NCBI GenBank assembly: GCA_951813565.1
Contig: OX638351.1
Span: forward strand, 1,984,001-2,048,000
Length of the DNA: 64,000 nucleotides
Source: an uncultured Poribacteria bacterium
GTDB lineage: Bacteria; Poribacteria; WGA-4E; WGA-3G
Direction: 5' to 3'
In this document: one piece after another, positions 3,616-52,818 of the stretch
Numbering within the stretch: the stretch's first letter is position 1
How the letters are laid out: every line of letters starts with the position of its first letter
The notes under the pieces: generated by a model
Seen by the model: the letters and a program-made list of their open reading frames with translations, nothing else
The model's database searches: none
What the model was told of the DNA's origin: nothing
Made by a program: the position numbers and the translations under genes

Positions 3616-6600
3616 TTGATAATGCTTTCAATTGAACATTGGAATGGGAGATTAGTAGTTTTGCGTAAACGCTTTGTGCACGCATTGTTATACGCAATAC
3701 AGCAATTTTTGAATATGTCTCCCAGAATATCAGTGCGTGCCATGTGTGCGTCCTGTTTTATTTTTTTATCAATTCTGTTTGTTTTTAGTTCTGCTGCAAT
3801 TGCTGAAGTGACCCAAACAACCACTGCAGATGGCATTACTGTAAATTTCAAACTTCCACAACTCCACGTTACGCAAGTCAAACCAGATGCCCAATTTAAA
3901 AGGGCAGGGGCAGGTGGTGTATACCATACGGTGAAATATTCCGACTGCGATTGGATTCGAGAACTGGGTTATCCTAAATTGCCAGTCACACGTGTTCTGT
4001 TGGCTATTCCTTCCGACGCGAAACTGAACAAAGCGGATATTTCTGTTAAAGCAGGTGTCTTACAGACTCGCAGCGGTATTAGACTTCTCCAAAATCAAAA
4101 AGAAACGAACCCTAATACCACAACCAATTTATACCCGACAGTTTTAGCTCGCATTGAGACGGATGGATACATCCGTTCCCAACGTGTCATTAGTTTGGCT
4201 TTACATCCAGTCCAGTATAGTGCTGCAACGCGTGAACTTCACTCTTATAGCAGTCTAACTGTTTTTATCCCTTTTGATTCACAATTGGAAACCCGTGGGG
4301 CAAGTGCAACATTCAATCCTGCACTATCTAACTTGAAGGGGACCCGTTCTCCTTACGAACAGACTTTTGCCCAGCATATTTTTAACTACACGGACTATCG
4401 CAAAGTTTTCAACGTTGATTTGGAAAGATCGCGAACTTTCCGTGCTGGTATGGGTGTTTTCCCATCGGCTCCCGCTGCACCAGGACTTACAGACGAATCA
4501 CTTCAGACCCGTTACAAACTCTATATTGATGAAGCAGGTGTATATAAGATCCCTGCGGCATCTCTCCGTACCGACTGGGGTATTGATCTTATAGGTGTTG
4601 ATCCTCGCAAACTGCGTCTCATGCACGGAGACCAAGAAATTCCTATCTACGTCAGTGGAGCAGTGGATAGAAGTTTTGACGCAGAAGATGCAATCTTTTT
4701 CTTAGCACACAGTTCTACCGATCCCAATAGCCCTTTTCCAAAGAACGCTTATACATTGTGGAATGTTTATTGGCTAAGTGTTGCTACGGAGGGACACCCA
4801 GCGCGTGTGCCACAAATTGAGGCAAGCCCCAGCGATGCAACGGCAGTTCAAGTGCCAACCTTCCGATCACGCGTCGTTTTTGAAGAGGATCATCTCAGTA
4901 ACAACCTTGAATTTGTTGATGCGGACATCGTCGCAGCGGGTGATAAACACAAATGGTTTGATGCTTTAGACTTTTGGTACTGGGACGGTATTAAAAACGC
5001 TAGCGATATCGGAGAACTACGGCTTGCGTTTCCACTTTATGACGTAGCGAAAAGTTTTGATCCACCACAGATACATGTCGTTTTACAAGGTGGCACGCCT
5101 GTAACGCATGAAATCTTGGCATCTATCAATGGGGTTCAGATTGATCGTGTAAAGTGGGAAAGTCAGGCGCAAGTGACTCTTTCAACGGGTCTCCGTGTTT
5201 GGAATAACCTCAAAGATGCGTCACAAGGTGAAACAAACGTTCTATCTCTAACGCGTATTGACGACACTTTTGAAGAGGACACTACCCGCTATCCGTATCA
5301 TATCTACCTCAATCGATTTTGGGTTGACTATACGCGCCTCTTTTTAGCTGTGAACGATCAACTCCGTTTTGGCACTCCTGTCAAGTCAGTCCAAGACAAT
5401 GAAAATAAAGGTGTTACACATCAATTTCGGGTTGATGCGTTCCTTGATCCGCAGATTTCCGTTTTCGAAACAGATGGGAATACGCTTACGGCAAAACTTC
5501 AAGGCGTTGATGTTACACGGCATGTAACCGATAATACCATGCGTGCCCGGCTCAGCGCATTAAATTCTGGAGACTTCAGAGCTGTACCGAATAACACTTA
5601 CACAGCAACTTTTCAGATACCGAATACCCGAACAACCGAGTTTATAGCGGTTTCAGATACTGCTCTTCGGAAGCCTGCTCAGATTGACACCGTTCCACCG
5701 AGCGATTTACGAAGCCCATTGAACGGTGTGGATTACCTCATCTTGACACATGCCAAATTCCGAGATACTGCTGAAAGATTAGCAAATTGGCGTGCAACAG
5801 CAGGCGGTGGTGGATACCGAACTAAAGTTGTTGACGTGGCAGATGTTTACAACACTTTCGGTGATGGAAAAGTTCACCCGATTTGGATAAAAAACTTTTT
5901 GACCTATGCGTACCAAAATTGGGCACCGCCGGCACTTTCATATCTGGTGATCTTTGGCGACGGCACCTACGATTTTCGAGGTATAAATAAAGAAATTTAT
6001 CTTGAACCCCCAGAACTTACAGGTTATATACCGCCTCACTATATTTCAACTGATTCCTTCGGTAGAACTTCTGTAGACCATTGGTACGCCACAGTCTCTG
6101 GACACGATGAATTTGTCGATTTTTATCTCGGCAGAATAAGTGTTGAAACTGAGGCGGAAGCTGATGCTGTTGTTGACAAGATTATCAATTATGAAGCACA
6201 ACGTCCCAACGGTGGATGGCGGCGCCGAATTATTTCCGTTGCCGATGATGAAGTTAGCAATTCCGGTGATCATATCTTTAAAAAGAGTCTTAACGAAATT
6301 GCCAAAGACCATACACGCCTCGGCTATGAAACCGTTGAAATTTATCTTGAAGATGTTATAGATGAAGTTGAAGCGAATCCAGAGGAATTCTCCGGTAGAC
6401 TGCCTCGGCACGTTGCAAAAGACAGAATTATTAATGCTTTAGGTCAGGGTGCTGCCATTGCCCAGTACGCTGGACACGGTGGACGAATCGTCTGGGCACA
6501 CGAAGCTATTTTTGATAATGCCTCTATTGATAAAATTGAAGAGACCGGACATCTTCCTTTTATGTTAGTGTTAAGTTGCTATAACGGCTATTTTGACGAT

Positions 6601-9600
6601 CCGGGTGAACCGAGCATGGCAGAAAAACTGCTACGTAAAGAGAGAGGCGGTATCATCGGGATGCTTAGCGCAACGCGCCTCACTTATGGCGATGGTAATG
6701 AGGAACTGAACCGAATTATCTTTGACATGCTATTCCAACGCGATATACGGCAGCTCGGTCCTCTCAGTTTTGATTCTAAACTTGAGTTCCTTCTGACACA
6801 AGGTACATCGCAGCTTGATATCATGCTTGAATATACACTTTTCGGTGATCCGGCGATGCAGATTGCTATGGCAGACCATGAAATCCTTCCTGTAATTGAG
6901 ACAAAGACGGTCAAAGCAGGCGATAAACTTAAGATCGCCTCCGGATTCATTCAGACTGCACACTACGATACTGAAACGAACAAGAAGGTTTTTACCCGTA
7001 ATACCAGTTTTAATGGGGAATTAACAGTAAAAGTTATTTTTCCCGGACAACAATCTGTTGGTGTTGATAAAACCGGTGCCCCAAGAGAGTTCTACTCCGG
7101 TGATGTTCCTGTAATAGAGACGTTACAAGTGCAAAACGGCAGTTATGATGCTGTTGAAATAGATGTGCCAGAAAATATTTCACCGGGCGATGCACATGTA
7201 GAGTATTATGCAGAAAACGCAACCGAAATTGCTGTTGGCGGCGACGGTTTCACTGTTGAGGTGCCGAAAATACTTGACATAAAACAGCAATTGATTACGA
7301 CCTCAGACGGAGAGGAGATGATTGATATCTCTGTAAACATTTCTGATGATGAAAAGATGGTTGATTCCGTTGTGTTAGAGTGGCGAAATCCGGAAACTCA
7401 CACGTGGGAAAAGGTTGACCTTGAAATAGATACTGAATCAACATCTCCTTTAGTGTCTACAGCAAGGTGGTGGAAACTTCCTGAACCTTTACCAGTCCCA
7501 ACTGATGGTTCCGCTTTTCGATATGATATTCAGATTACGGATATGGATGGGTTTGTTGTAAATTCCGATTATTACCGATTCTATCCATATATGTATCCTA
7601 ATCTTTCAGTGGTTTATAAGCGTAGAGAAAGTGTCGGACAGATCAGTTATAATTTGGGTGATCCAAAAGATGCTGCACAGGGACGCTTTTTGTCTGTTGA
7701 TGTTGAAGTTGTAGGTTCCACTAATTCTAACGATAATGCTGTTTCTGACAACGATCTGATATCCGAATTCGGACTTTCTGATATTAATGTAGAAGTAGCC
7801 TTTTTTAGCGGAAATCCAGATATAGATGACAATGGTATTATTGACACTGATGCTAATCTGCTTGGCAGAACGGAAATAAAACCGGACGATTGGGTTGTGC
7901 GCAATCCGCTACATCAAGGGGGTGGTGCGTATACACCTGATCCACTCAATATCAATCCTATTGCGACTGCCGCTATCCCAATATCTTTGCGCAGCGGCAT
8001 ACACGACGTGTTTGTCTATGTTGATCCGATTTTTAGCGAGGCGGAACAACCCGGAAAAGTTCTTGAAAATTATGAGCAAGATAATATTGGGTATAAACAA
8101 CTCACTATTTCCGGCAATATCATCGGGGAAGTGCCAACACGAAGCACTAGTGCTGATGGCGGCATCCGCATAATAACACCAGCAGGTGTAGTCGCGAATA
8201 AGTCTTCACTTCTTACTGTTTTGCCAATAGTTCCAGATACTGTGGACGCTGATTATGCCTATTTTATTGGTGGCACAGGAGAGGTGCGAAGCACTAAAAC
8301 AAAATCACCGCTTCCTATTATTGGAAGTGAACAAAAAGGCAATATTAAAACAGGGATGCTTTTTCCGGTAATGTTCCCAACACATCCATCTCTACTCGGT
8401 TATACATTGCACCTAAACGAAACAGAATCTGATGACCTATGGAATGCCTTTACACTCCAGGCACCAGTTGCCGTTGAACTTGATTTTGATTGGACAGCAC
8501 TGCAACAGGAGGTGATGCGGGAGCTTTTTGGTAGTGGGACGGATGTGTCAACTGATATGTCTGTTATAGAGGAAACCCTTAGTGCTGCTGTTGAGGAACG
8601 AGCGCGTAATATCGGTGCATATCTGTGGCTTGATGCTTTGTCTAACTGGACACGGCTTGATTCTGAAATCAAAAGACATCCAAATGGTGGTATCCATACA
8701 GCTACCCGTGCCACCCAAATTCGGAACGATAACACCAGTGATAGGAGAATTAAAGATGTAAATATCCCATCAGAGGGCGCTAACATAGGTGTCTGGATAA
8801 TCCTTTTTGAGACTGCACAGACCTACCGTCTTCTCTTTATACCCGGCGATCCTTCAGAGGTGACGACATTAGATAATCGCCAATTAGAAGAGATTGCGAG
8901 AGGGATACCGCTTAGATCTTTTACGCATGCAGGCATAACTTCCACTGCAGCTGTGCCTGAATTTACTTTTGATATCGAAGAGGGGGACACCTCTTTTCAA
9001 TTCGGTGATATTTTACGTTTCAGCGTCACGCAACTTGAAGTACCGGGTGAGGTGGGGAGTTCTCAATTTTACGCGTCATCTTTTATCAGCGGAAACAGAG
9101 GAGATGGGACAATTCAATATCTTGATTTGAGTCCAGAGACAACAATTCCACTGGATACTTGGCTTATCATGTTTGTTTCTCCAACGCAGTTTCAGATTGA
9201 AGGGAGAAACAGTGGAGTCTTGACGAAGGATGGAGTGCCAATATACGGGACAGTCGGTAAGCCTTTTGAATATAGTGATTATGGGTTGAATCTATTGATA
9301 ACACAAGGTCCTATCCCTTTTATTGTCAGTGATCGGTTCTTGTTTGAAACGTCTAAGGTGGGAACAATTCAAGCAAAAACTTCATATTTAGGCACAGTTA
9401 CTTGCCTGCGAAGCGAGGATAAAGTGCCTCCAGACATACAATTAACCATTGGCAACCAGCAACATTTTACTTCTGGTGCCCCAGTTGATGCCAAGCCACT
9501 TATCCAGGCAACGCTCACTGATGCGCGCGGTATTGATTACGTCACGCGTCCTGTTCAACTCGCTTTGGGAAGGTTTGGAGAATTTGAAACTATCTCCGAA

Positions 9601-10056
9601 ACCGAGTACAAACTCATACAGCATCCAAGTTCTACGCAATTGGTATTGACGTATAATTCTCCTGAACTTGAACCTCGCGAATATCAACTCCGACTCACGG
9701 CGAGTGATCTTGATGGAAATGAGGGAGAGAGTGAGATTACTTTTCAGGTGCATGGCAAACTCCAACTGATAGAACCCTTGAATTATCCGAATCCGTTTAC
9801 ACGGGATACCACAGTGACATGTGAATTAACAACGCCTGCTGAGTCGCTCACTGTCAAAATTTACACCCTTACCGGAAGGCTTATCCGACAACTTGAAACT
9901 GAGGCACCAGCAGGGTTTATACAACTTAAGTGGGATGGCAAAGATGATGAAGGTAGCGAAGTTGCTAACGGAGTCTACTATGGAAAAATTATTGTTAAAA
10001 GCCTTGATGATGAAGATGACCAGACCCACATTCTGAAAATGATGAAATTGAAATAG
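3616..10056 (+). CDS. porU: Large PorU-like C25 (gingipain family) cysteine peptidase with C-terminal FlgD/T9SS-CTD-like domain; likely start 3715
   Basis: Signal peptide, C25 propeptide-like N-terminus, DYLILTH, YLVIFGDG, catalytic YAGHG and LSCYNG, YTLFGDP; C-terminal NYPNPF...KIYTLTGRLIR...WDGKD...VANGVY; directly upstream of a porV-like gene. Confidence 0.75.
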   Translation: MIMLSIEHWNGRLVVLRKRFVHALLYAIQQFLNMSPRISVRAMCASCFIFLSILFVFSSAAIAEVTQTTTADGITVNFKLPQLHVTQVKPDAQFKRAGAGGVYHTVKYSDCDWIRELGYPKLPVTRVLLAIPSDAKLNKADISVKAGVLQTRSGIRLLQNQKETNPNTTTNLYPTVLARIETDGYIRSQRVISLALHPVQYSAATRELHSYSSLTVFIPFDSQLETRGASATFNPALSNLKGTRSPYEQTFAQHIFNYTDYRKVFNVDLERSRTFRAGMGVFPSAPAAPGLTDESLQTRYKLYIDEAGVYKIPAASLRTDWGIDLIGVDPRKLRLMHGDQEIPIYVSGAVDRSFDAEDAIFFLAHSSTDPNSPFPKNAYTLWNVYWLSVATEGHPARVPQIEASPSDATAVQVPTFRSRVVFEEDHLSNNLEFVDADIVAAGDKHKWFDALDFWYWDGIKNASDIGELRLAFPLYDVAKSFDPPQIHVVLQGGTPVTHEILASINGVQIDRVKWESQAQVTLSTGLRVWNNLKDASQGETNVLSLTRIDDTFEEDTTRYPYHIYLNRFWVDYTRLFLAVNDQLRFGTPVKSVQDNENKGVTHQFRVDAFLDPQISVFETDGNTLTAKLQGVDVTRHVTDNTMRARLSALNSGDFRAVPNNTYTATFQIPNTRTTEFIAVSDTALRKPAQIDTVPPSDLRSPLNGVDYLILTHAKFRDTAERLANWRATAGGGGYRTKVVDVADVYNTFGDGKVHPIWIKNFLTYAYQNWAPPALSYLVIFGDGTYDFRGINKEIYLEPPELTGYIPPHYISTDSFGRTSVDHWYATVSGHDEFVDFYLGRISVETEAEADAVVDKIINYEAQRPNGGWRRRIISVADDEVSNSGDHIFKKSLNEIAKDHTRLGYETVEIYLEDVIDEVEANPEEFSGRLPRHVAKDRIINALGQGAAIAQYAGHGGRIVWAHEAIFDNASIDKIEETGHLPFMLVLSCYNGYFDDPGEPSMAEKLLRKERGGIIGMLSATRLTYGDGNEELNRIIFDMLFQRDIRQLGPLSFDSKLEFLLTQGTSQLDIMLEYTLFGDPAMQIAMADHEILPVIETKTVKAGDKLKIASGFIQTAHYDTETNKKVFTRNTSFNGELTVKVIFPGQQSVGVDKTGAPREFYSGDVPVIETLQVQNGSYDAVEIDVPENISPGDAHVEYYAENATEIAVGGDGFTVEVPKILDIKQQLITTSDGEEMIDISVNISDDEKMVDSVVLEWRNPETHTWEKVDLEIDTESTSPLVSTARWWKLPEPLPVPTDGSAFRYDIQITDMDGFVVNSDYYRFYPYMYPNLSVVYKRRESVGQISYNLGDPKDAAQGRFLSVDVEVVGSTNSNDNAVSDNDLISEFGLSDINVEVAFFSGNPDIDDNGIIDTDANLLGRTEIKPDDWVVRNPLHQGGGAYTPDPLNINPIATAAIPISLRSGIHDVFVYVDPIFSEAEQPGKVLENYEQDNIGYKQLTISGNIIGEVPTRSTSADGGIRIITPAGVVANKSSLLTVLPIVPDTVDADYAYFIGGTGEVRSTKTKSPLPIIGSEQKGNIKTGMLFPVMFPTHPSLLGYTLHLNETESDDLWNAFTLQAPVAVELDFDWTALQQEVMRELFGSGTDVSTDMSVIEETLSAAVEERARNIGAYLWLDALSNWTRLDSEIKRHPNGGIHTATRATQIRNDNTSDRRIKDVNIPSEGANIGVWIILFETAQTYRLLFIPGDPSEVTTLDNRQLEEIARGIPLRSFTHAGITSTAAVPEFTFDIEEGDTSFQFGDILRFSVTQLEVPGEVGSSQFYASSFISGNRGDGTIQYLDLSPETTIPLDTWLIMFVSPTQFQIEGRNSGVLTKDGVPIYGTVGKPFEYSDYGLNLLITQGPIPFIVSDRFLFETSKVGTIQAKTSYLGTVTCLRSEDKVPPDIQLTIGNQQHFTSGAPVDAKPLIQATLTDARGIDYVTRPVQLALGRFGEFETISETEYKLIQHPSSTQLVLTYNSPELEPREYQLRLTASDLDGNEGESEITFQVHGKLQLIEPLNYPNPFTRDTTVTCELTTPAESLTVKIYTLTGRLIRQLETEAPAGFIQLKWDGKDDEGSEVANGVYYGKIIVKSLDDEDDQTHILKMMKLK

Positions 10057-10194: not shown

Positions 10195-10557
10195 GTAGAA
10201 AAAACACTGGAAAAACAAGACGAATTACGTTAATTTGGTATAACAACTGACAACCGACTTATGAAAAAAGAAAATATCGTAGGGAATCAACGCTGAATAC
10301 GCTTTTGGCATTAGCGAGCAGAACAACGTGAAACCTATTTTAGGAATATTCACGTTCGTAGTCGCGCAATTCATTGCCAAATCAACGCCAAATACGCGTA
10401 TGGTATTTGTCGCCTCGGACATTCTGTAGGAGCGTCCTCCTGGTCGCGACATATTACGAATGGTCGCTCCCGCCGAATACCACAAGCGTATTCGGCGTTG
10501 ATTCACAAGAAGAAAATCGGGCTTATAAGCCCTCCAACGAGAAAATTAGATACTCTT

Positions 10558-11562
10558 ATGAGAAAAGTTTTTATTATATTTATTCTTTTTATATTCGTAA
10601 TACTACCTGCTGCAGCTGAACGAACGTATACAGCGGATTTTCTTACATTTGGAACGGGGGCGCGTCCGTTAGGTATGGGTAACGCCTTTACCGCTATCGC
10701 TGATGAGGCAAGCACCACTTACTATAATCCTGCTGGCATTGCACAGTTGACGCATCATGAATTTAATTTTATGCACGCCACGCTTGCGGACCTCGCTGCG
10801 TATGACGTGGCAAGTTATATCTACCCGTTTTCTCCCAAAATGACTTTCGGCATCAGTTGGCTCCGTGTCGGTGTAGACGACATCCCGATTACAGGCATTC
10901 CGGTTACCACCAGAGCAATTGGTCCTAATAATCGTCCTTATGTCATTGGCACTTTTAGCAATACAAGTAATGCTGTGCTGCTGAGTGGCGCACGGCATCT
11001 CACCACTTTACCACGGGATGTCTCCATCCATCTCGGTGCCAGCCTCAAGTTGATCTATATCGCAGCATATCGTAATACCAACGCCATTGGTGGTGGCAGT
11101 GATCTCGGTATTCTTGCAAAAACTAACGAAGATAAATCATCTGCTTTCTCCTTCGGTGTCGTAGCGAGTGATTTCCTTACAACTAAACTCTATTGGAATA
11201 CAGTGCCGGAAAACGAAGGTGAATCGCCTCACACAGAGACACTATTGCCGCGCCTCAAAATAGGTATTGCCTACCATCAGAAACTTGCTATTTTTAACAG
11301 TAAACTCACCTTAGCAGCTGATGTGGACACCCGCAACGACTATGAATTTCACACCGGGGCAGAATACGTTCTCTTTGAACTGTTAGCACTCCGCTGTGGG
11401 TTTGATGGACGAAACGGCACGTCCCGCGCGATGTACTTTACCGCTGGTGCTGGGATCCAACTCCGCTTCGTTACTGGTGCTGCATTTCATGTCGACTATG
11501 CCTATCAAAGACAACCAGATTTAGGCATCAGCAACCGCCTCTCCCTCCGCGTTAGATTTTAA
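10558..11562 (+). CDS. porV: PorV/UPF0164-like outer membrane beta-barrel
   Basis: Signal peptide; GTGARPLGMGNAFTAIADEASTTYYNPAGIA motif; VDYAY; terminal Phe beta-signal (LSLRVRF). Confidence 0.8.
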   Translation: MRKVFIIFILFIFVILPAAAERTYTADFLTFGTGARPLGMGNAFTAIADEASTTYYNPAGIAQLTHHEFNFMHATLADLAAYDVASYIYPFSPKMTFGISWLRVGVDDIPITGIPVTTRAIGPNNRPYVIGTFSNTSNAVLLSGARHLTTLPRDVSIHLGASLKLIYIAAYRNTNAIGGGSDLGILAKTNEDKSSAFSFGVVASDFLTTKLYWNTVPENEGESPHTETLLPRLKIGIAYHQKLAIFNSKLTLAADVDTRNDYEFHTGAEYVLFELLALRCGFDGRNGTSRAMYFTAGAGIQLRFVTGAAFHVDYAYQRQPDLGISNRLSLRVRF

Positions 11563-35676: not shown

Positions 35677-35740
35677 CCGTTAGGCAAACTTTATGGGAGG
35701 GATTCGCAACGTTTCCCTCCCATCGCAAAGGAGAACTACG

Positions 35741-36890: not shown

Positions 36891-38021
36891 ATGCGTCTAC
36901 AAAAAGTCAGTTTGCTTTGCTTACTAATGCTACTGCTTTTCGGTGTGGTGGCAGATGCGAAAATCGTTTTTAGTTCCAGACGCGACGGTGTGAAAGGTAT
37001 TTACGTTATGGACGATGATGGTAGCAACCAGACGCTTCTCATTGAAGATGGAGAAAAGTGGTTCCCATACCCTGATTGCTGGTCGCCCGATGGTAAATGG
37101 ATTGCATTTACGAGACGTTATAGTGATAACTTGATGCATTCAGATGGCACAAACATCCAAAAACTCATAATCCCTAAAGCGTATGTCGGTAGAATGTCAT
37201 TTTCACCGGATGGCAAAGCTCTCGTTTTTAATATGAGAGTGGACATAGATGGCAAAGAGATAAAGACCGTCAACGTGCTGAATATAGAAACGGGGGAGAT
37301 AAAAGAGATAGCGGATGTCAGTGCGATCTTTTGTGATTGGTCGCCTGATGGCAAGTCTATTGTGTTCTCAAAGCCGGGCGTGGTTGACGATGTAGGTGGC
37401 ACGCTTTGGATAATGGGAGCCGATGGTAATAGACCACGAAAACTACTACCTCACCCTGAACGGGGACGCTTCAAAGCACCGCGCTGGTCACCCGATGGCA
37501 AACAGGTTGTCTATCTCCATGACGAATATGTGTGGGAACCACGGGACGGATTCGGCCTTGCGCTTATCTACAAGGCGCATCGGTATCTGATTTGTGATCG
37601 CAACGGAAGAAACATCAAAAAACTACGGATACCAAAGGACTGGCGACCAATACAAATTGACTGGATGGATGATGGCAAATCCGTTGTTTTCAGCGCGTAT
37701 GTTGGACTCCCTTTAGACGAAATGGTACATCCCGATCAGCTCCCACCGTGCAATATCTATAAGTACCATATCCCGACAACCGAGATTACGCGCCTCACAG
37801 ACCATCTGGGAAAGGATGACTCGCTGGATTGGATCAGCGATGATGTGCTTTCTGTTTCACCTAAAGGTAAGATGCAAACGCAGTGGGGTGCGATAAAAAA
37901 GTTTCTTCAGAGTCGTAGTGAAGCGTTTAAGGCGTTTTTCGCAAAACGTGTTAGTTTTCCTGCAGAATTAACGTTAAATGTGCATGCAGCATTTAGTGGT
38001 TTGTCAAAAACTCAAGATTAA
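36891..38021 (+). CDS. TolB-like PD40 beta-propeller with WGxxK motif
   Basis: Signal peptide, WSPDG repeats, SVSPKGKMQTQWGAIKK. Confidence 0.85.
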   Translation: MRLQKVSLLCLLMLLLFGVVADAKIVFSSRRDGVKGIYVMDDDGSNQTLLIEDGEKWFPYPDCWSPDGKWIAFTRRYSDNLMHSDGTNIQKLIIPKAYVGRMSFSPDGKALVFNMRVDIDGKEIKTVNVLNIETGEIKEIADVSAIFCDWSPDGKSIVFSKPGVVDDVGGTLWIMGADGNRPRKLLPHPERGRFKAPRWSPDGKQVVYLHDEYVWEPRDGFGLALIYKAHRYLICDRNGRNIKKLRIPKDWRPIQIDWMDDGKSVVFSAYVGLPLDEMVHPDQLPPCNIYKYHIPTTEITRLTDHLGKDDSLDWISDDVLSVSPKGKMQTQWGAIKKFLQSRSEAFKAFFAKRVSFPAELTLNVHAAFSGLSKTQD

Positions 38022-38284: not shown

Positions 38285-41200
38285 TTATTCAAATTCGCCT
38301 CTCACCGTCAGCGCACTTGCAACGGAAAGGTAATCCCTTCCTTCTTCAACCCTATCGTGGTTGTAGCTTAGTCCCAAATGTAGATTTGCAGTGAGATGGT
38401 CGCTAAGTTTGTAGCCTGCACGTAAAGTTGTCTCGTATCGTTCAGAACGTTCCTCCTTATTGGCACCGTAGTTTTCTCTGCGAATTGCCAAAGAAAAGGT
38501 ATTTGTCAGATCAATGTCGTGCTCAAGTTGTATTCTGCCGATCAGTGGCAAGCGTATACCGCCTTCGGTTCGGTAGCGATAGTCAATACTAAAATTCGGT
38601 GTAATAATAAAAGCGTCGCTTTGAATTCCGCTTCGTAGATGATCACGTAGGGTAGTACGAATTCCTAATGAAGTCCTGGTTTCGTCGCTCCATTTTTGCA
38701 TCCAACTTAGCGATGGGGTATGTGCGGTACTGTCACTGAGCGTAACTTCAAGGTTAGCATTCTTCCGTATTGTATAGCTATAACGAAGTTGGAAACTTGA
38801 TGCCTGTTGTGCATTAAGCTTAACATCCGCTTCATAAGTTTCTGCGTGTGATGTATAAGTGCTACCGTAACTTTTCCGAAAACTATCGGATGTGCTGAGA
38901 TTCGTTCCGAAGGATAACCATTTCCACGGATCCACAGAAGTGCGGACTGTATAGCGGTTGCTTTTTCGTGAATTGGTGCGTTCATCTGCTTCTTGATCAA
39001 GCTCCCAGATTTCTATCAGCGACTGCCCAGATTCAAGTTGACGAAAAGATTCGGTTGTGGAATAGTTTGCACTGGTGTTAATCGTAAATGTATTCAGTAT
39101 TCGAAGCAGGAGACCTTCCTGCTTAGGCTGTTGCGTGGCAAGAGAACCTTGTGCTGTAGGACTGGGACGCTGCTTTTGCACCATCTCTGCTTTATCTCGG
39201 TTAATCCAATCGTTTTGATCTTCTACTAATTTCTGAATTTGGGTTTCATCAATACCATTTTCGCGTAACTTTTCAAGATTTTGTTCAATCGGTGTCTGTT
39301 TCCCCGACTGTTCAATCGTTCCATCCTGATTCCCGTTTATGCCTCCAGTTTCTGGTTTTTCCTTATTCAACAGCCATCCGAACCATTTTTGGATGCGTAG
39401 ATTCAAGCCGAGGTTGATATTTCCATTGAGTGAAGCATCTTTCTTTACATTGAACCAGTTCTCCCGGAAACCTACACGGCTTGTCACCGTTGGACGTAAG
39501 CCGAGGAGATCACGATTGAGTCGTGGGGTGAGTGAAAGCCGATGTTCTCGTTCGGCAATAGAAAAATCTGGTACGGTATCTTCATCAGGATCCTCTTCCA
39601 CAGAAGAATCAGGCTCCGTCACGCCTCCCGCAAAATATGATGTTGTATAGCGATTTGGATCCCGTCTTTCAAGTGTCCGCCGTATATCGTAACTTGGATT
39701 AAGACTAAAAGCGTTTATTGGACTGATATCAAGTGTTATGGATCCGCTGTCTGTTTTTTCATCTCGATTCCTACCATAACCGTAGCTATAATATGAAGTT
39801 GATGTAGCGGTTGTATCTGTTGCTGTTTCAGGCTTCGCCAAAATATCTTCATGCCGATATTGCACATTGAACCCAAGTTTTGAACCGATATTGTAGCGAA
39901 AATTGCCTGTGTATAGATGACTAATTTGTGTTCCTCGCCGCTCGTTCCAAAAATCCTGATAATTGTAAGCGAATCCGAGGTTTGGAAACGGATTTCGGTT
40001 GAATTGCACCGAAACATCTCTATTGAGAGTTTCACTCTTTCCGCTTTGAAAAGAGGTATAGCTGCCTCGCAGTGCCTCCGTTTCAGATTCCTGTTCTCGG
40101 ATGGAATAGCGGATAGGCAACCATGAAAACAGTGTGACTTCCGCATCAATGTTGTAATCATTGTTCGTAGTACTATAGCCACGGGACGACAAGCGTTGCC
40201 GACCAATTTCACCAGCGCCGCTCTCAAAGTCTTTGTCCTGACTTGCGTAGCCGCCCCGCAGACGTATGATATTACCAAGCGAAACAGACATATTCCCACG
40301 ACGTGCCCATCCTGAACGAACGAGTGGATCACCGAGATGTATCTCGTTAACCCATACTTCACCGCTAATTTCTCGTTCTGTATCGTTTCGGATACCGAGC
40401 AATATGCCTCCGATATTTTTGATGGAGAGCTGCGTTCTACTTACACCTGATCCTGTGCCTCTAACAGTAAAGCCGTCAGGGTGTCCGTCAGGTGCATTTT
40501 GTACGGGAGACGGTTGTCCTTGCTGATCAGGTGTATCTGTATTATCACTTGGATTTTCAATCAGGTCAGGATATTCATTCCTGCTATGGTCCCGCAGGTC
40601 AATTTCAATAAGTTTCCAACCTTCAAAGTCTATCGGCACAGTGTATTCATAATAGTCTGTAAGATTCTCAAAGATATTAACATCTTCTTCTTGCGGTTGG
40701 TTGAGGAATGGATCAGAACTGTAGAAAGAACTACGATAACCTGTACGCACACTGGGAGCGAGCTGTAGCACAAAGGTAGTGTAGCTTTTATCACCATACA
40801 ACCATAATCGGAGTGTATCGTGCCTGCTAAAGTCTTGCCCTTCGCTTTGCGTGAATCCTTTTAGCTGCTTAGAGGTGATACCGTAAGAGTTCGGATAGAG
40901 ATAATACTCTAAACTTAGCGTCTGTTCGCGTTGTTGCTGTGTTTGAAAAGCGAGCGAAGTGGCTGTAAACGGGTGCAGTTTTCTAAAAAGCTCATTATCT
41001 TCAATCTCCAAATACGCACTTTGATAGTCGTCATAACTGAAGTTATCCTTTGCGCCAACGATGAACTTTTCAAGCGTATCTTCAACGACTTTTTGGTCGG
41101 AAAGTCCAGTGGTTGTATCTGTGAAGGATTGTGTGACTACTCCCTGTTCCCATTTATTTCCTACAATCTCAATAGATGCCCATTGGAATGTTCCCTTGAC

Positions 41201-44200
41201 GGTGCCCGGACGGTTCTTCATCAACCAGAAACGAAAATGCTGAACAAATACAAGACTGGGAACACGGGAGCCTTCTGGTAAAAATTTTGAGAGCGGGATG
41301 CTAAGGAACGTCCATCCGTTGCTATTTTTACCTTTAACCCATTCGTTCGGAATGTCATTAAGTGGGATAGCGACCTGAAAATATGCATCAACACTATCAA
41401 GTACACCGTCACCATTCAAATCCTCGCTATCCAAAATTTGATTGTTTGCACCAAAAGACTCAGGTTGAAATGGACCGTCATAACGCCATCCAACGTCTTC
41501 CCCAATATCCGATCTGCCGTTGCCAAAGTGCCGCTGTGCATCCGACAGGTTTTCAAGGTCAAGATCAAGGGCATCAACAACACCGTCGCCGGTTGTATCG
41601 TCTAACGTTTGTGGCAGGTCTTCACTATCAAGACGCCCATCAGCATCCGAATCTTCATTCACAGCACCGAGATTGAGATAGAGTGTCACATCATCATCTC
41701 CTTCCACGCGCATCCACATCTCCACAAAACCGCGTTCGGAATAATCAACGCCAGATTTTGATATGCCATTTGAGAAACCTCCCCATTCTTCAACCACATC
41801 TGTGAAATCGTATCCAACTTCCATAATCAACCGTTCTTCTGTTGAGAGAGAAAGCGGTTGAATTGATGATGCAGGCACATCCCGATTTCGCATGTAGTTG
41901 CCAACGGCTTCTGCTTCTTCTCTATCTTTCAGTACGACGTTAAAAAGTGCTCTATTCTCTTGTGTCGGTAACACACTATAATCGTGTGTCGGTAAACCTG
42001 CCTGTACCGATTCTTGGACGGACGGCACACTACTCGGCTTCCAGTTAAATTTTATGGTAGGTATTGTGGTGGTTTCCTTTACACCTTCCATGCTATCAAT
42101 CAGAGCAACGCCAACGCTATTTGGGTTGTTATGTGAATAAGCAGACTCTCCACTAAAGTCAATAGAGAGCGGAAAATTCTGGATATTGACAAAAGGCAGC
42201 GGGTTTAGTAACCACGCCATGTTGAATTCCCTACCAAAACTTGTGTTGATATTAAATGCTTGCAAGCGGTTGGGAACTTCATTGACATTCGGTATTTGGG
42301 CAGGTTTCTGCCCAGTCGTTAAGATATATCCTGTTGATACGGTAAATCCTTTTTGGTAAACCGGATTGAAATAATTCATGCCGGTCCCGTATCCTCCAAA
42401 ATAACTGGGTCCGATTCGCGAACGTCCCCCAAAACTTCCAAAACTACTATAGCCACCCGCACCAAAACCGCCGCCAAAGGTGCTATGACCTAAACCGACA
42501 TTGCCAAATCCCCTACCCGAACGTGTCCCAGAAGAAGGAAAGCCACTTGAAAATGGGTCATTCGTGAGATTATTATCCAAACCTGTTTGCATTGTTTGCA
42601 TTCCACCCAGACGATTGAACCTATCCTCAAGATTCTGTTCTCTCTCAGATTTCGGTTTCGGTTTATGTGTATAATCTAACCATACACCTACAACTGCTTG
42701 CTGTGAACCCGCGCCGAATGGGGTTTTTTCAAATTCCACTACGATTTCATCGAATTCATCAAGTTCTGTGAAAAATCGAATGGTACCAACCTCGTAGACC
42801 ATCAAGTAATCCGTATCTCGCGTTAGAACTCTCCCGTTTAGTCGCACAGTCTCACTATTTGGAATCACAAACAATCCGACATTATAGGTCTCAGATTGAT
42901 AAGAATAATCAGCAACAATTGTGTATATCTGGTCAGTACTACGGAGGGATTCAAGATAAATGGCTTCGTTGTTGAGTAAATCTCGGTGTTGATAATAAGG
43001 ATGTTGTGGATCGCTGATTTTAAAGGGTTGCAAGCTTGGGAAACGTAGTAATCCTCTGTCGTAATCTATGAACTCCGAATCAACGATTCCATCACCGTTC
43101 TGGTCCAATCCAAATATCTCAATATATGGGACAAGTCCTGCGTCAGTTTGGAATGTTTCACTTTCTCCTTGGCGGATAATTGTCAGCTGAAAATCTCGAG
43201 GGTTGATGTTTCGGTTCCCGAGGCTGTAAACATGAGATGCAGCATTTCCGCGAAAACCTTTCTCTTTTATAACAACATAACCAATCTCTTCACCCTCTTC
43301 ATCAATAGAACCGTCTCCGTTCTCATCAGCAAAAACGTTTCCAGGATTGCCGACACTACCACCACCATCGCCCAAATATTCGTAAGCGACAACGATAGTA
43401 TAACTGGAGGAGATCGGAGATAAAAACTCAATCTCGCCCGTTTCATAGTCAATGTTGTAGTCCTGCCCGGGAAACTGCGGATTGAAGTAGCCTTGACTCG
43501 TTCGTTTGCCACCTTGGTTATTGCCCACGACGCTATCGTCAATATAGATTTCCACACTCCCCTGTTTTATGGGAAGATATGCCTCGTGCAGCAGACCGTC
43601 TTCCCCTTGGTGAATTAAATAGTATCTGTTTTTAATATAATTGGCATCCGCAATCTGAATGCCGCGCGGTCCGTAACCGAAACTTGCTCTTCGCGACTGT
43701 CCACGGAACGTCCGCACTTCACGGACACCTTTGCTTCGCGATCCGAAAAGGGTCATACGGGTGTTTTTATATTCAAACACTCCTTCCAGTCCAAAAAGGT
43801 TTCGGTTGATATTTAGGAAACGGGTGTTCGGCAGGCTAAGCGTAATGTCACCGAAAGATATAGTTTTGATGAAATCTTCGGGTTTGCCTTCATACCAGAT
43901 TTTAATCTTCTGTTCTTTCGCACCACCGAGTCCATACCCACCGTAGCTGCTACCTCCATATCCACCATACCTGCCACCATACGAATCACCTGCATTGTAA
44001 TCCACGGCAATATGTGTTCGTTCGCCTACACGACCGTGCAATCCAATATTTTGGTGTTGCCGTATATTAATGCCAGTAGCACGCGGAACACCACCTCTGC
44101 CGTAACTACTGTAACCCCCATAACTACTGTAGCCACCCCCATAACTTGAACCAAAACTGTCGTATCCACCACCGCCAAATCCGCTGCTGTAGCCAAAATC

Positions 44201-44788
44201 TTCATAACCGTAGGAGGAGGAAAGTCCAAGGTCAAGCCCAGAACCGTAGTCCCCATAACTTCCGTAACTATAGCCGCCGTAGCGATTCAAATCGCCTTCT
44301 CCGAAATAGTGGGTTTTGTTGACTTCAATTGTCACTGATTGATCAATTTTTACTTGTAGGTTAGAATCCATAGGAAGATCAATGCCTTTGGTATCGGATG
44401 TTTTACGTGGTTTCCAATCGTAAAGTTCGGAGAGGTCACCGAGATCTGGCGGATATTTCCAACGGCGTAGTGTCTCTAAGTATGGAATCAGTATCTGACG
44501 ACGCACAGGTATATCTGAATCTATATCTTCCGTCGTTGATGGGTCGTCTGTTGTTTTCGTTTTAGATTCGCTCTGATCCCATGTATTTTTTTCTTTTTTA
44601 GGCTTCTTGCTAAATGGATTCTCAACTGGAGGTGGAGAGGTGATTTCCTCTTGAGGAGGTGGAGTGGTTTCGTCTTTTTCCGCAGTTAAGGCAGGTTTTA
44701 TAAAAACAAGAAAACAGAGGGCGAGCGTAAACAGTGATATATATCTATTTGCAGGCTGTGGCTTCAAAAGAATGTGCTCCATCATCAA
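38285..44788 (-). CDS. sprA: SprA/Sov-like giant outer membrane beta-barrel (T9SS translocon-like)
   Basis: 2167 aa with signal peptide; DYNIDYETG, IDYDRGLLRFP, PNSETVRLNGRVL..DTDY, ALIDSMEG, LNLGAVNED, VWVNEIHL motifs; amphipathic beta-strand C-terminus. Confidence 0.75.
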   Translation of the reverse strand: MMMEHILLKPQPANRYISLFTLALCFLVFIKPALTAEKDETTPPPQEEITSPPPVENPFSKKPKKEKNTWDQSESKTKTTDDPSTTEDIDSDIPVRRQILIPYLETLRRWKYPPDLGDLSELYDWKPRKTSDTKGIDLPMDSNLQVKIDQSVTIEVNKTHYFGEGDLNRYGGYSYGSYGDYGSGLDLGLSSSYGYEDFGYSSGFGGGGYDSFGSSYGGGYSSYGGYSSYGRGGVPRATGINIRQHQNIGLHGRVGERTHIAVDYNAGDSYGGRYGGYGGSSYGGYGLGGAKEQKIKIWYEGKPEDFIKTISFGDITLSLPNTRFLNINRNLFGLEGVFEYKNTRMTLFGSRSKGVREVRTFRGQSRRASFGYGPRGIQIADANYIKNRYYLIHQGEDGLLHEAYLPIKQGSVEIYIDDSVVGNNQGGKRTSQGYFNPQFPGQDYNIDYETGEIEFLSPISSSYTIVVAYEYLGDGGGSVGNPGNVFADENGDGSIDEEGEEIGYVVIKEKGFRGNAASHVYSLGNRNINPRDFQLTIIRQGESETFQTDAGLVPYIEIFGLDQNGDGIVDSEFIDYDRGLLRFPSLQPFKISDPQHPYYQHRDLLNNEAIYLESLRSTDQIYTIVADYSYQSETYNVGLFVIPNSETVRLNGRVLTRDTDYLMVYEVGTIRFFTELDEFDEIVVEFEKTPFGAGSQQAVVGVWLDYTHKPKPKSEREQNLEDRFNRLGGMQTMQTGLDNNLTNDPFSSGFPSSGTRSGRGFGNVGLGHSTFGGGFGAGGYSSFGSFGGRSRIGPSYFGGYGTGMNYFNPVYQKGFTVSTGYILTTGQKPAQIPNVNEVPNRLQAFNINTSFGREFNMAWLLNPLPFVNIQNFPLSIDFSGESAYSHNNPNSVGVALIDSMEGVKETTTIPTIKFNWKPSSVPSVQESVQAGLPTHDYSVLPTQENRALFNVVLKDREEAEAVGNYMRNRDVPASSIQPLSLSTEERLIMEVGYDFTDVVEEWGGFSNGISKSGVDYSERGFVEMWMRVEGDDDVTLYLNLGAVNEDSDADGRLDSEDLPQTLDDTTGDGVVDALDLDLENLSDAQRHFGNGRSDIGEDVGWRYDGPFQPESFGANNQILDSEDLNGDGVLDSVDAYFQVAIPLNDIPNEWVKGKNSNGWTFLSIPLSKFLPEGSRVPSLVFVQHFRFWLMKNRPGTVKGTFQWASIEIVGNKWEQGVVTQSFTDTTTGLSDQKVVEDTLEKFIVGAKDNFSYDDYQSAYLEIEDNELFRKLHPFTATSLAFQTQQQREQTLSLEYYLYPNSYGITSKQLKGFTQSEGQDFSRHDTLRLWLYGDKSYTTFVLQLAPSVRTGYRSSFYSSDPFLNQPQEEDVNIFENLTDYYEYTVPIDFEGWKLIEIDLRDHSRNEYPDLIENPSDNTDTPDQQGQPSPVQNAPDGHPDGFTVRGTGSGVSRTQLSIKNIGGILLGIRNDTEREISGEVWVNEIHLGDPLVRSGWARRGNMSVSLGNIIRLRGGYASQDKDFESGAGEIGRQRLSSRGYSTTNNDYNIDAEVTLFSWLPIRYSIREQESETEALRGSYTSFQSGKSETLNRDVSVQFNRNPFPNLGFAYNYQDFWNERRGTQISHLYTGNFRYNIGSKLGFNVQYRHEDILAKPETATDTTATSTSYYSYGYGRNRDEKTDSGSITLDISPINAFSLNPSYDIRRTLERRDPNRYTTSYFAGGVTEPDSSVEEDPDEDTVPDFSIAEREHRLSLTPRLNRDLLGLRPTVTSRVGFRENWFNVKKDASLNGNINLGLNLRIQKWFGWLLNKEKPETGGINGNQDGTIEQSGKQTPIEQNLEKLRENGIDETQIQKLVEDQNDWINRDKAEMVQKQRPSPTAQGSLATQQPKQEGLLLRILNTFTINTSANYSTTESFRQLESGQSLIEIWELDQEADERTNSRKSNRYTVRTSVDPWKWLSFGTNLSTSDSFRKSYGSTYTSHAETYEADVKLNAQQASSFQLRYSYTIRKNANLEVTLSDSTAHTPSLSWMQKWSDETRTSLGIRTTLRDHLRSGIQSDAFIITPNFSIDYRYRTEGGIRLPLIGRIQLEHDIDLTNTFSLAIRRENYGANKEERSERYETTLRAGYKLSDHLTANLHLGLSYNHDRVEEGRDYLSVASALTVRGEFE

Positions 44789-45612
44789 TGTTTAATACTA
44801 TGTGATAGTATTATAACGGAAATGCAAATGCCAGGTTTACGTTATATGGTATGTCAGTGCATAATTTATGAAAAAAGTGCAAATTTGTAATGGTTCATTT
44901 CATAAGGTGTAAAAGTTCTGGTATTAACCATATCATCTTTCTTGTGGGAGGGAGACCTTGTCCGCCCGATTTTAGTTTAAATTAGTAACAATCTGTTTGT
45001 AGTCGCGCAATTCATTGCGTCTCTTTTTAGCACCTTTTGAGGTGTTGTTTCACACTTCATGTATTATAACCCAAGTTGCTACCTATATCGCGAATGCTCT
45101 TGTAGGAGGGGTTTCTAACCCCGATTTAGAAAAGAAAGCATAAGAATTAGCTGGAAATCCTTGTTTTTCAGTAAAAAGCAATGTCTGCAAGCTTGAAATC
45201 TTGTCCGTAGCAACTTAGGTTATTATAGTAAAAACCATAATTATTTACACACTACAAATCAACGCCAAATGCGCATAAGGCATTTAGCGGGTTCGGTATG
45301 TGATCAATCCCTCATAGCACTCCGCTGGCGTGCAAGAACTTCGGGACATGTTTCTATAAACATAGCACTCCGCTGGAGTGCAAGAACACATTTGTTATTG
45401 AATGTAATAGACGTGAAATATCGTTCCGTTTCCTTTAATATTTAATATTAATGTCGAACTTACTTTCATTAGGAAAGTTTGCCCGATTTGAACGTCAAAA
45501 CTCATCAGGTAAGCGGAGCGAAACACAACGGACGATACTATTATAAAGAATTAACGCATGTGATAAAATGCGTCAAAAATATAGAAAACTAAATAACCCT
45601 GGTATAGAGGCA

Positions 45613-45954
45613 GGGTGTGTAAAGTTTTTGTAGAAATCCGCACAACTCCTATTGTAGGGGCGGGTCTCCGGGGAATGCCTTTTGGCATTCCCCGGGACCC
45701 CGCCCATAGGCGTCAATTTAAGCACACAATCACCAGATTGCCTCTTGTGGGAGGGCTTTATAAGCCCGATTTATATGTATTTATCGGGGTTGAAAACCCC
45801 TCCCACAAGAGGGTATATCCTTAAATTGACGGCTATGGGGCACCAAATCAACGGTATGAATGCCTTTTGGCATTCCCCGGGACCCCGCTCTACAGTGGAA
45901 AATGCCGCGTAATCATTGCAAATTGAACCTATGTAACCAAATATTTACACACCC
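45613..45954. mobile_element. GGGTGTGTAAA-family MITE with nested CATAGG MITE (45705..45837)
   Basis: TIRs; perfect 9-bp TSD ATAGAGGCA. Confidence 0.9.
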
Positions 45955-46029
45955 ATAGAGGCAGATTTTGTTGCCAGATTTGCAAAAATATGGTATACTT
46001 TCTTTAATTTACCGACAGAGAGGAGAATT

Positions 46030-52318: not shown

Positions 52319-52818
52319 CTTGTGGGATGTAGACGGCTAAGTGGTTGGTAGCAAAAATAAACTTGACAATCTAATCACAATGTGGTATAACATACTATAC
52401 GCTATTATAGAAAGGTAAGATATTATGCCACTCAAAATCTCTAATAAAAAGCGTAATTATCGCACTACGAACAAAACAGTCTATAGTTGTCAATATCACG
52501 TGATTTGGTGTGCCAAGTATTGTCGTAAGGTTTTGGACACTCAAATACAAGGGCGTCTCAAACAACTGATACGCGAAAAACAAGACGCGTATGGTTACAA
52601 AATCCGTGAAGTTGAAACACAATCTGAACATGTACATTTACTGGTAGAAATGCCTCCTACAGATTCTGTAGACAAAATCGTTGGCAAAATCAAAGGTTAC
52701 ACCTCAAAAGTTTTGCGAGAAGAATACCCTTCTCTAAAAAGTCGTCTTCCTTCACTTTGGACGCGTTCAAAATTTGTAAGTTCCTGTGGTGGTATAACGC
52801 TACAAGTCATAAAAGACT
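52290..52818 (+). mobile_element. tnpA: IS200/IS605 left end and truncated TnpA (52425..)
   Basis: Left-end hairpin CCGTC..ATCCCCATG..TGTGGGATG..GACGG; TTGACA-17-TATAAC promoter; YHVIWCAKY, HUH motif EHVHLL, LWTRS; cut at the expected catalytic Tyr codon. Confidence 0.88.

Follow-up and report, generated by a model that had tools for sequence, protein, structure and literature searches.

The stretch of DNA analysed here (the window) comprises 64,000 nt of contig OX638351.1, to which all coordinates refer, and belongs to a 5.4-Mb genome of Candidatus Poribacteria, a sponge-associated organism. On its reverse strand, positions 38285..44788 hold a single open frame that, according to the ORF list and its translation, encodes a protein of 2167 aa with a TTG start as listed. 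Judged by its sequence, this gene is a divergent SprA/Sov-type outer-membrane translocon of a type 9-like secretion system. Searched alone, the protein reaches 155.7 bits with TIGR04189 (cut-off 200), which is its sole NCBIfam match and whose best-matching stretch corresponds to residues 1114-1562, and 25.5 bits with PF14349 (cut-off 27); direct searches of the PDB with the 2167-aa protein gave no match. The profile of an alignment that includes the protein and 36 relatives (A4, 37 sequences) matches SprA from Flavobacterium johnsoniae (6h3i_A) with an E value of 3.3e-164, and positions 134-1566 of this profile align with chain residues 112-2057. The TIGR04189 scores of the relatives grade continuously from 145 to 900 bits, SprA_N appears in 28 of the 30 nearest ESM-Atlas clusters, and the whole genome holds just this one SprA-like locus. 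The designation "SprA-like translocon", given in the sequence-only reading that preceded this work, is thus borne out by the TIGR04189 score and the A4 match to 6h3i_A.

The protein resembles SprA from F. johnsoniae (PDB 6H3I/6H3J) and Sov from Porphyromonas gingivalis in being a giant single-chain outer-membrane protein, and in the order of its blocks: strands 1-7, a large insert, strands 8-11, and another large insert. It differs from them in its host, a member of Poribacteria instead of Bacteroidota, in staying under the curated cut-offs of TIGR04189 and PF14349, and in holding three Gly/aromatic inserts (referred to as T1, T2, and T3) where SprA has connections of 4-15 residues.

All the parts of the gene are given on the reverse strand. 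The protein starts with a probable Sec signal peptide (residues 1-36, 44681..44788), recognized by eye from a hydrophobic core followed by an A-x-A-like site, with cleavage expected between KPALTA and EKD. A charged, Pro-rich N-terminal region follows (residues 37-141, 44366..44680), which is presumed to be periplasmic from the translation and by analogy with F. johnsoniae, where the N-terminus of SprA is periplasmic and lies within the SkpA trimer (PMC10994853). Strand 1 of the barrel is predicted at residues 142-160 (44309..44365) from the alternating hydrophobicity in alignment A4, and the profile match to F. johnsoniae SprA places its counterpart at residue ~112 and beyond. According to the strand count, strands 2 and 3 would occupy residues 238-264 (43997..44077), with a 2-residue turn between them, and they hold a strongly conserved block (G252/R253/G255/T258/H259/V262/D263/Y264). 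Putative strands 4-7 (residues 293-350, 43739..43912), recognized by their alternation pattern and short even-to-odd turns, are followed by a folded insert between strands 7 and 8 (residues 351-696, 42701..43738). By alignment and length, this region corresponds to the first cap insert of SprA, as it aligns with residues ~265-750 of the F. johnsoniae protein and spans 346 residues versus a median of 368 in the relatives. Strands 9-11 are placed by the strand count at residues 814-884 (42137..42349), and the second large insert and the remaining barrel (residues 885-2167, 38288..42136) are free of Gly/aromatic tracts in a composition scan.

The placement of strands relies on our own count from the hydrophobic alternation in alignment A4 and on two statements from the literature, namely the periplasmic location of the SprA N-terminus mentioned above and the description of SprA cap inserts between strands 7-8 and 11-12 (PMC9127263). 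Eleven alternating segments were counted, and the two large inserts fall at the positions of the published SprA cap layout, a comparison that covers the first 11 strands only. As a yardstick, members of the family have ~2000-2400 residues and a 36-strand barrel, to be compared with 2167 aa and the first 11 strand-like segments here. The even-to-odd turns are short (2, 5, 1, and 4 residues). With this count, T1 and T2 are predicted to belong to loops 1-2 and 3-4 on the cell surface, and T3 to turn 8-9 on the periplasmic side. The tracts would then be anchored at the rims of the two mouths of the pore, and not in external loops far from the pore, a location that would have spoken against a gating role as first suggested. 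This anatomy of T1-T3 is well supported.

The genome also encodes partners expected for this kind of secretion system. Positions 3616..10056 (forward strand) of the window hold a gene for a PorU-like C25 sortase with a T9SS C-terminal sorting domain, which scores 281.6 bits with Peptidase_C25, 419.9 bits with NF033707 (cut-off 420), and 24.7 bits with TIGR04183. It adjoins a gene for a PorV/PorQ-family outer-membrane protein (10498..11562, forward strand; NF033709 100.9 bits, cut-off 90), which is one of two such proteins in the genome, the other scoring 202 bits. Altogether, three PorU-like C25 proteins and 31 Por_Secre_tail matches were found. The SprA-like gene therefore co-occurs with PorV-family proteins, PorU-like proteins, and cargo bearing the sorting domain, as in the T9SS of SprA/Sov. 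With two carriers of the PorV/PorQ family encoded, lateral gating of the canonical type may still operate. In contrast to the SprA/Sov systems, the models for GldL, GldM, and GldN (TIGR03513, TIGR03517, PF12081, and PF19841) have no match in the genome, and the GldK model finds only generic sulfatase-modifying domains (up to 119.7 bits, cut-off 350). However, three of the four GldLMN models are silent in the control genomes too, the exception being a below-cut-off match of PF12081 in one of them, and for this reason the absence of a motor or ring is not proven.

T1 (residues 169-235, 44084..44284) is a Tyr/Gly/Ser-rich acidic insert, located by composition and strand count in loop 1-2, on the predicted cell-surface side. 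It contains eight YG and three FG dipeptides, 82% of its residues are Gly, Ser, Tyr, or Phe, and its 17 aromatic residues are separated by a median spacer of 2. T2 (residues 268-290, 43919..43987) is a Tyr/Gly insert assigned on the same grounds to loop 3-4, also on the predicted cell-surface side, with five YG dipeptides, 83% G/S/Y/F, and five aromatic residues with a median spacer of 2.5. In the strand 8-9 hairpin, alignment and strand count reveal an insert of 107 residues in a turn predicted to be periplasmic (residues 707-813, 42350..42670). Its C-terminal part is the T3 tract proper, delimited by composition (residues 748-806, 42371..42547), which is rich in Phe, Gly, Ser, and Arg and shows six FG and one YG, 71% G/S/Y/F, 11 aromatic residues with a median spacer of 3.5, and four charged residues among 59. 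The recount of the three tracts returned the YG/FG numbers and coordinates given previously; for T3, the FG tract was confirmed as reported, while its extent had to be enlarged to the whole insert, whose leading ~40 residues (707-747) are charged and not of the Gly/aromatic type.

The make-up of T1-T3, read from the translation, is of the sticker-and-spacer kind, as in cohesive disordered domains. The densest 60-aa stretch contains 11 [YF]G dipeptides, whereas 1000 shuffled versions of the protein averaged 3.1 and never exceeded 6, and no 30-aa stretch with at least 70% G/S/Y/F occurs in the protein outside the three tracts. A six-frame search of the whole genome gave 4489 ORFs of 150 aa or longer; among them, this is the only one with at least six [YF]G in 40 aa, and a looser filter added a single further ORF, of 194 aa and unrelated.

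These tracts are lineage-specific inserts, since the connections in which they reside are short in all other SprA relatives examined, which comprise 33 tract-less proteins and F. johnsoniae SprA (PDB 6H3I). Loop 1-2, with T1, has 77 residues versus a median of 15 in the 33 tract-less relatives; loop 3-4, with T2, has 28 versus 9; and turn 8-9, with T3, has 107 versus 4 (range 4-6). F. johnsoniae SprA is likewise short at the three sites. Within the phylum, 61 aligned poribacterial sequences were compared, 56 of them from the order of the window's organism and the five most distant from other classes and families. T1 and T3 are found at identical sites in all 61, down to 42-49% identity, while T2, present in the 56 members of the order, is cut down in the five distant sequences to 12-13 residues that contain 0-1 [YF]G. 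Composition is preserved while sequence and length drift: each protein holds 22-42 aromatic residues with a median spacer of 2-3, their number and position vary, and those of T3 are mainly Phe in the order and mainly Tyr in the distant classes. The tracts are therefore neither strain-specific nor unconserved in composition, and the previous proposal of selection at the protein level is supported by this phylum-wide conservation of place and composition but not of sequence.

These data bear on the view that T1-T3 are low-complexity expansions tolerated in permissive loops and devoid of a specific function, which we consider very unlikely. Loops and turns do permit insertions structurally, the lengths vary (58-84 residues for T1 and 78-123 for the T3 insert), T2 is missing from the most distant lineages, and small 2-copy DNA repeats exist within T1 and T2. 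Nevertheless, TRF detects just two such arrays (21 nt inside T1 and 24 nt inside T2), and all four kinds of Gly codons are intermixed in the tracts, in agreement with the earlier statement that they are not exact DNA tandem repeats. Retention of T1 and T3 across the phylum, preservation of aromatic content, charge sign, and position, and the lack of anything alike elsewhere in the proteome also argue against mere tolerance, as does a sample from an independent study that shows 0 indels and six substitutions over 2501 nt.

The charge of the tracts is also conserved. T1 is net negative in 59 of the 61 sequences and T2 in 52, neither being positive in any, whereas the FG-rich part of T3 is net positive in 60 and has a median of 0 acidic residues. 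The outer tracts are acidic and Tyr-rich, and the periplasmic one is basic and Phe/Arg-rich. The consistent acidity of T1 and T2 on what is probably the cell surface would suit loops that face the sponge host or sea water and might adhere to matrix, bind cations, or shield the pore against phage or factors of the host, with a separate periplasmic role for T3. The sponge-associated lifestyle fits this proposal, and so does the report that T9SS sorting domains are borne by many eukaryote-like repeat proteins of Poribacteria (PMC3909097). We regard it as unlikely, however, as it leaves unexplained an insert of similar composition on the periplasmic side, surface loops exposed to selection by host or phage tend to differ between strains, unlike the two samples compared above, and T1 and T3 are shared with the five sequences from other classes and families.

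Alternatively, T1-T3 may be docking or assembly loops that attach to further components of the envelope and leave the pore open, with PorV/PorQ-like carriers, the double-length PorU-like sortases, a periplasmic chaperone or scaffold, peptidoglycan, or lipopolysaccharide as candidate partners. Short motifs that are better conserved than their surroundings (SGLDLGL-SSYGY-DFG in T1, and EDRFNRLGG and GGRSR in the T3 insert) point in this direction, and the opposite charges of the outer and inner tracts could mean different partners on each side. In F. johnsoniae, disordered parts of the translocon do bind partners, namely the SprA N-terminus within SkpA and the finger region of SprE to PorD (PMC10994853), and the LysM wall anchors found on distant poribacterial forms of the protein imply that envelope tethering evolves in it. 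Against docking, throughout the phylum composition is more conserved than sequence, an uncommon pattern in docking sites that are specific, and the same odd composition recurs at three separate sites in this protein only. Docking is hence a possibility that we take seriously while not expecting it to hold.

Several known systems offer points of comparison for a role at the pore. Plug (Fjoh_1759/PGN_0144), entered merely as a hypothetical protein in PMC5053529, binds at the periplasmic mouth of SprA in F. johnsoniae (PMC9127263, PMC7463736), and stops leakage through the pore when PorV is absent (PMC9127263). If T3 worked as proposed below, it would occupy the mouth that Plug seals, although the two differ in kind, with Plug binding reversibly as a folded protein in its own right and T3 being part of the barrel chain as a tethered loop of low complexity, and no sequence relation between them is claimed. 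The YG domain of PEX13 is also associated with a conduit for folded proteins; short Gly/Ser spacers (~4 residues, versus a median of 2-3 here) lie between its aromatics, which are mostly Tyr and vary in number and position between species while composition is kept (PMC9795577). In contrast, PEX13 forms a meshwork of many molecules in two orientations within a bilayer, and its linkers are uncharged, while a single chain is present here in or beside a β-barrel, with an acidic T1 and a basic T3. There is no homology between them.

T3 resembles the FG domains of nucleoporins in its richness in Phe-Gly, its Ser/Gly spacers, its scarcity of acidic residues, and its probable anchoring to the wall of a wide channel. 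It differs from them in its shorter spacers and in its low number of repeats, 6-10 FG, where a nucleoporin has dozens and a nuclear pore combines hundreds of chains, and we know of no analogue of a transport receptor for the poribacterial SprA tracts. The drift of repeats under a constant composition that characterizes selective phases is displayed by the 61 poribacterial sequences, including the switch between Phe and Tyr in T3. In FUS-family proteins, a Tyr-rich prion-like domain is combined with an Arg/Gly-rich domain, and cohesion is driven by Tyr/Arg pairing. The Tyr/Gly/Ser tracts T1 and T2 and the Arg/Gly/aromatic T3 similarly coexist in one protein, but FUS-family proteins are eukaryotic, cytosolic or nuclear, and RNA-binding, whereas the two kinds of segments are here on opposite sides of the membrane and could meet only via the barrel.

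Of the three tracts, the strand count puts only T3 at the periplasmic mouth, to which Plug binds in F. johnsoniae, and the earlier idea that the tracts fill or gate the lumen in place of a Plug is unsupported. A gate or gel is compatible with the anatomy of the tracts but unsupported, and a sealing function, which T1-T3 might have, is our preferred guess. It can be envisaged, tentatively and with the odds against it, that they self-associate into soft seals or curtains at the pore. T3 would stretch over the entrance on the periplasmic side, the site taken in Flavobacterium by the separate Plug protein, with T1 and T2 at the exit side; jointly, they would limit leakage via the very wide pore while folded cargo passes with a PorV-like carrier. 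The SprA pore is ~7 nm in diameter, and ~200 tract residues in a bore of this width would amount to ~120-210 mg/ml, an estimate that holds only if all the tracts are confined there; YG/FG phases reach at least 200 mg/ml (PMC9795577). Several observations run counter to such a seal. FG and YG phases consist of many chains, and each pore has one here; T1 has seven charges in 65 residues, unlike the charge-poor YG domain of PEX13; T1/T2 and T3 are on opposite membrane faces; canonical closure of the lateral opening may suffice, as PorV-like carriers are present; and other SprA relatives function without such tracts.

A more specific version of the sealing proposal, which we regard as quite improbable, is that the acidic, Tyr-rich outer loops and the basic, Arg/Phe-rich periplasmic loop meet in the barrel and form a cohesive single-chain plug through aromatic and cation-π contacts. 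If true, this in-barrel plug would be a bacterial counterpart of the selective phases of the nuclear pore and PEX13, and the pore, through which folded proteins pass, would be gated by it with neither a separate Plug nor a motor.

The protein encoded at window 38285-44788 on the minus strand, a single open frame of 2167 residues, proves to be a divergent translocon of the SprA type, and it carries three Gly/aromatic inserts that are specific to its lineage and conserved in composition. It begins with a hydrophobic segment that, by eye, resembles a signal peptide ending between ALTA and EKD. Its sole family matches are to T9SS (type 9 secretion system) translocon families, both under their curated cut-offs: NCBIfam TIGR04189 (Sov/SprA), with 155.7 bits over five stretches (cut-off 200), and Pfam SprA_N, with 25.5 bits (cut-off 27). 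Direct searches of PDB sequences with the whole protein, with the poribacterial profile A1 and with residues 1100-1600 found no SprA; their only matches were to stathmin, spurious ones caused by a charged stretch. This stretch (window 39090-39360, residues ~1810-1900), rich in Glu, Lys and Gln and probably helical, lies within the C-terminal half of the barrel. A profile of the protein and 36 relatives retrieved SprA of Flavobacterium johnsoniae (6h3i_A) with an E value of 3.3e-164. Furthermore, TIGR04189 scores run from 145 to 900 bits across sixteen representatives (three poribacterial and thirteen relatives), which indicates that the family is continuous from the poribacterial form to canonical SprA. 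By homology, the protein is thus a member of the SprA/Sov family. No second SprA-like locus was found in the genome, a single 5.43-Mb contig.

The three tracts that the sequence-only reading had located in this protein are real, and the coordinates agree. All of them on the minus strand, T1 covers residues 169-235 (window 44084-44284) with eight YG and three FG pairs, T2 residues 268-290 (window 43919-43987) with five YG, and T3, the C-terminal part of a larger insert spanning residues 707-813, covers residues 748-806 (window 42371-42547) with six FG and one YG. Gly, Ser, Tyr and Phe together account for 71-83% of each tract. The densest 60-residue window of the protein holds 11 aromatic-Gly pairs, against a mean of 3.1 and a maximum of 6 in 1000 shuffles, and no other of the genome's 4489 six-frame ORFs with 150 or more residues reaches six such pairs in 40 residues. 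A looser filter added a single, unrelated ORF of 194 residues outside the window (G000:C1:106494-107075 on the genome's contig, plus strand), which carries a Tyr/Gly/Arg-rich run (YGYGYHRPYYRYYRGYY...) and is the only other Tyr/Gly-dense ORF of the genome. The tracts had also been said not to be exact DNA tandem repeats, and in fact Tandem Repeats Finder reported no arrays beyond two with 2 copies each (24 and 21 nt); within the tracts, all four Gly codons are used and intermixed.

The tract sites were also compared with those of more distant proteins. A profile of residues 291-1490 matched 1638 proteins at E values up to 0.001 in a search of 1.84 billion representatives. Among the best 150 of these 1638 matches, the tracts are present in six, all with scores at the poribacterial level, and absent from the remaining 144, which include a few poribacterial fragments that do not contain those regions. 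A word-based search with residues 140-300 gave 79 proteins of 1677-2388 residues, few of them named, with the labels Candidatus Poribacteria, "hypothetical" or "LysM". The connections at the tract sites were measured on a 37-row alignment (the SprA-like protein and 36 relatives), in which 33 tract-less relatives served as the comparison set. The connection has 77 residues at the T1 site against a median of 15 in these relatives, 28 against 9 at the T2 site, and 107 against 4 (range 4-6) at the T3 site. Unlike the poribacterial protein, F. johnsoniae SprA has short connections at all three sites. Judged from these alignments, the tracts are inserts peculiar to the phylum.

Within the phylum, SprA-like homologues were detected in 120 of the 121 genomes sampled, the single miss being a genome that is 81% complete, and 80 related loci belong to Candidatus Poribacteria MAGs in public records. 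Excluding one locus with an internal stop, 61 full-length sequences were aligned (the window's own and 60 from other genomes). T1 is present in all 61, down to 42-49% identity, with 58-84 residues and 5-17 aromatic-Gly pairs, and so is the T3 insert, with 78-123 residues and 2-15 pairs. All 56 sequences belonging to the window's own order have T2, and the five most distant sequences have at its site 12-13 residues with 0-1 pairs. The composition of the tracts is conserved in this alignment even though their sequence drifts: the aromatics of T3 are chiefly Phe in the window's order and chiefly Tyr in the distant classes, and 22 to 42 aromatics per protein are found over the three tracts. Such retention across the whole phylum fits poorly with the idea that the tracts are neutral expansions, which we regard as improbable. 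The length of T1 plus T2 is uncorrelated with that of T3 (r 0.03); their aromatic counts give r 0.47, a value that is discounted because the sequences are kin. A contig from a separate study differs from the window's stretch by six substitutions and no indels in 2501 nt, so the stretch is stable between samples. In libraries labelled as RNA (X11, X12), three identical small contigs were not counted as evidence of expression, as they could be DNA carry-over. The distant poribacterial SprA-like proteins (P0003, P0234-P0242) bear N-terminal LysM peptidoglycan-binding domains, which the window's protein does not have.

The position of the tracts in the barrel was approached by counting strands from averaged hydropathy on the 37-row alignment, which gave eleven alternating segments. 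Strands 1-7 are assigned to residues 142-160, 238-254, 257-264, 293-300, 306-320, 330-341 and 343-350, followed by a first large insert of 346 residues, and strands 8-11 to residues 697-706, 814-824, 841-853 and 872-884, followed by a second large insert. These positions agree with a published description of SprA, in which two folded inserts, between strands 7-8 and 11-12, cap the barrel and seal its extracellular end (PMC9127263). Connections from even to odd strands are short (2, 5, 1 and 4 residues), as for periplasmic turns, with the 18-residue connection 10-11 as the exception, and those from odd to even strands are longer. The N-terminus of SprA is reported to be periplasmic, inside the SkpA trimer (PMC10994853). 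On this evidence, two tracts would be cell-surface loops, T1 being loop 1-2 and T2 being loop 3-4, and T3 would be the periplasmic turn 8-9, so that the tracts probably hang at the rims of both pore mouths. That the short strands 3-4 border the lateral opening was unsupported and is excluded from our conclusions. T1 and T2 could alternatively serve as surface loops that face the host or the environment, but we consider this unlikely.

The charge of the tracts follows the same division. T1 (residues 164-234, window 44087-44299, for this count) is net negative in 59 of the 61 sequences and T2 in 52, and neither is positive in any, while the Gly/aromatic part of T3 (residues 748-813, window 42350-42547) carries a net positive charge in 60 of 61 and has a median of 0 acidic residues. 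Acidity thus goes with the Tyr-rich tracts of the outer side, and basicity with the Arg/Phe-rich tract of the periplasmic side.

The sequence-only reading had proposed that the tracts fill or gate the barrel lumen in place of the Plug protein. The reading we prefer, though tentatively, is that they may be disordered, self-associating loops working as soft seals. T3 would lie over the periplasmic entrance, where in Flavobacterium the separate Plug is seated and prevents leakage (PMC9127263, PMC7463736), leaving the exit side of the pore to T1 and T2. The make-up of the tracts speaks for such seals: the median spacers between aromatics are 2-3.5 residues, against about 4 in the YG domain of PEX13, described as having Gly/Ser linkers and repeats of variable number and position (PMC9795577). 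Likewise, packing the roughly 200 tract residues into a bore of 7 nm would give an estimated 120-210 mg/ml, which comes close to the concentration quoted for FG/YG phases, at least 200 mg/ml (PMC9795577). Against soft seals stand the single chain per pore instead of many, the charged residues in the tracts, their location on opposite membrane faces, the PorV-like carriers encoded in the genome, and the other SprA relatives that function without such tracts. Short conserved motifs inside the tracts favour another possible role, rated about as likely as the seals, as docking loops for partner proteins. For the soft seals, a barrier function of the FG/YG type is hypothesized by analogy; PEX13 and nucleoporins have no homology to the SprA-like protein.

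The genome also encodes other parts of a T9SS. A PorV/PorQ-family protein scores 202 bits (cut-off 90), and a second barrel of this family (window 10498-11562, plus strand; 100.9 bits against 90) adjoins a double-length PorU-like C25 sortase of 2146 residues (window 3616-10056, plus strand; 419.9 bits against 420) with a propeptide, a C25 domain and a T9SS sorting domain. This PorU-like/PorV-like pair lies ~28 kb from the SprA-like gene. There are two further PorU-like genes and 31 matches to the type A sorting domain, and PorP/SprF is matched marginally (23.6 bits). Searches for GldL, GldM (two models) and GldN gave no match in the genome, but three of the four were equally silent in control genomes, so the absence of these proteins is not claimed. 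The GldK candidates were rejected as generic FGE-sulfatase (sulfatase-modifying) domains, with at most 119.7 bits against 350. The genome may hold a motorless type 9-like system.

Around the gene, the 1.2 kb upstream (window 44789-46029) contain no ORF of at least 100 residues and no Rfam match at the gathering score. Two PD40/TolB-like beta-propeller proteins (window 35693-36853 and 36891-38021, plus strand) are convergent with it; before them lie an ECF-type sigma factor (34144-34782) and an unassigned ORF of 282 residues. An IS200-like Y1 transposase (52425-52829, plus strand) adjoins an IS1595-family transposase (52872-53705, plus strand).

A single-cell genomics study of 2014 described poribacterial proteins with type 9 sorting tags and reported that the structural genes were not found (PMC3909097). 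The SprA-like gene and the PorU-like and PorV-like genes of the same window probably provide the route, so far missing, by which many symbiosis-related proteins are exported. In public records, the poribacterial SprA-like proteins are named only "hypothetical" or "LysM", and no printed description of these tracts was found among the literature titles and abstracts listed. New here are their statistics across the phylum, the comparison of insert sizes with those of 33 relatives, the placement by strands and the charge asymmetry.

How SprA, to our knowledge the widest known single-chain outer-membrane pore, avoids leakage is a live question. The poribacterial lineage, whose protein has gained three putatively cohesive low-complexity loops at its two mouths and which seems to lack the usual motor, represents a natural experiment on gating. 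Even if the seal proves false, the tracts would still be a marker of the poribacterial SprA lineage, useful for annotation; if it is true, a selective-phase-like barrier would be known for the first time from a bacterial secretion pore, which would then have converged with nuclear pores and peroxisomes.
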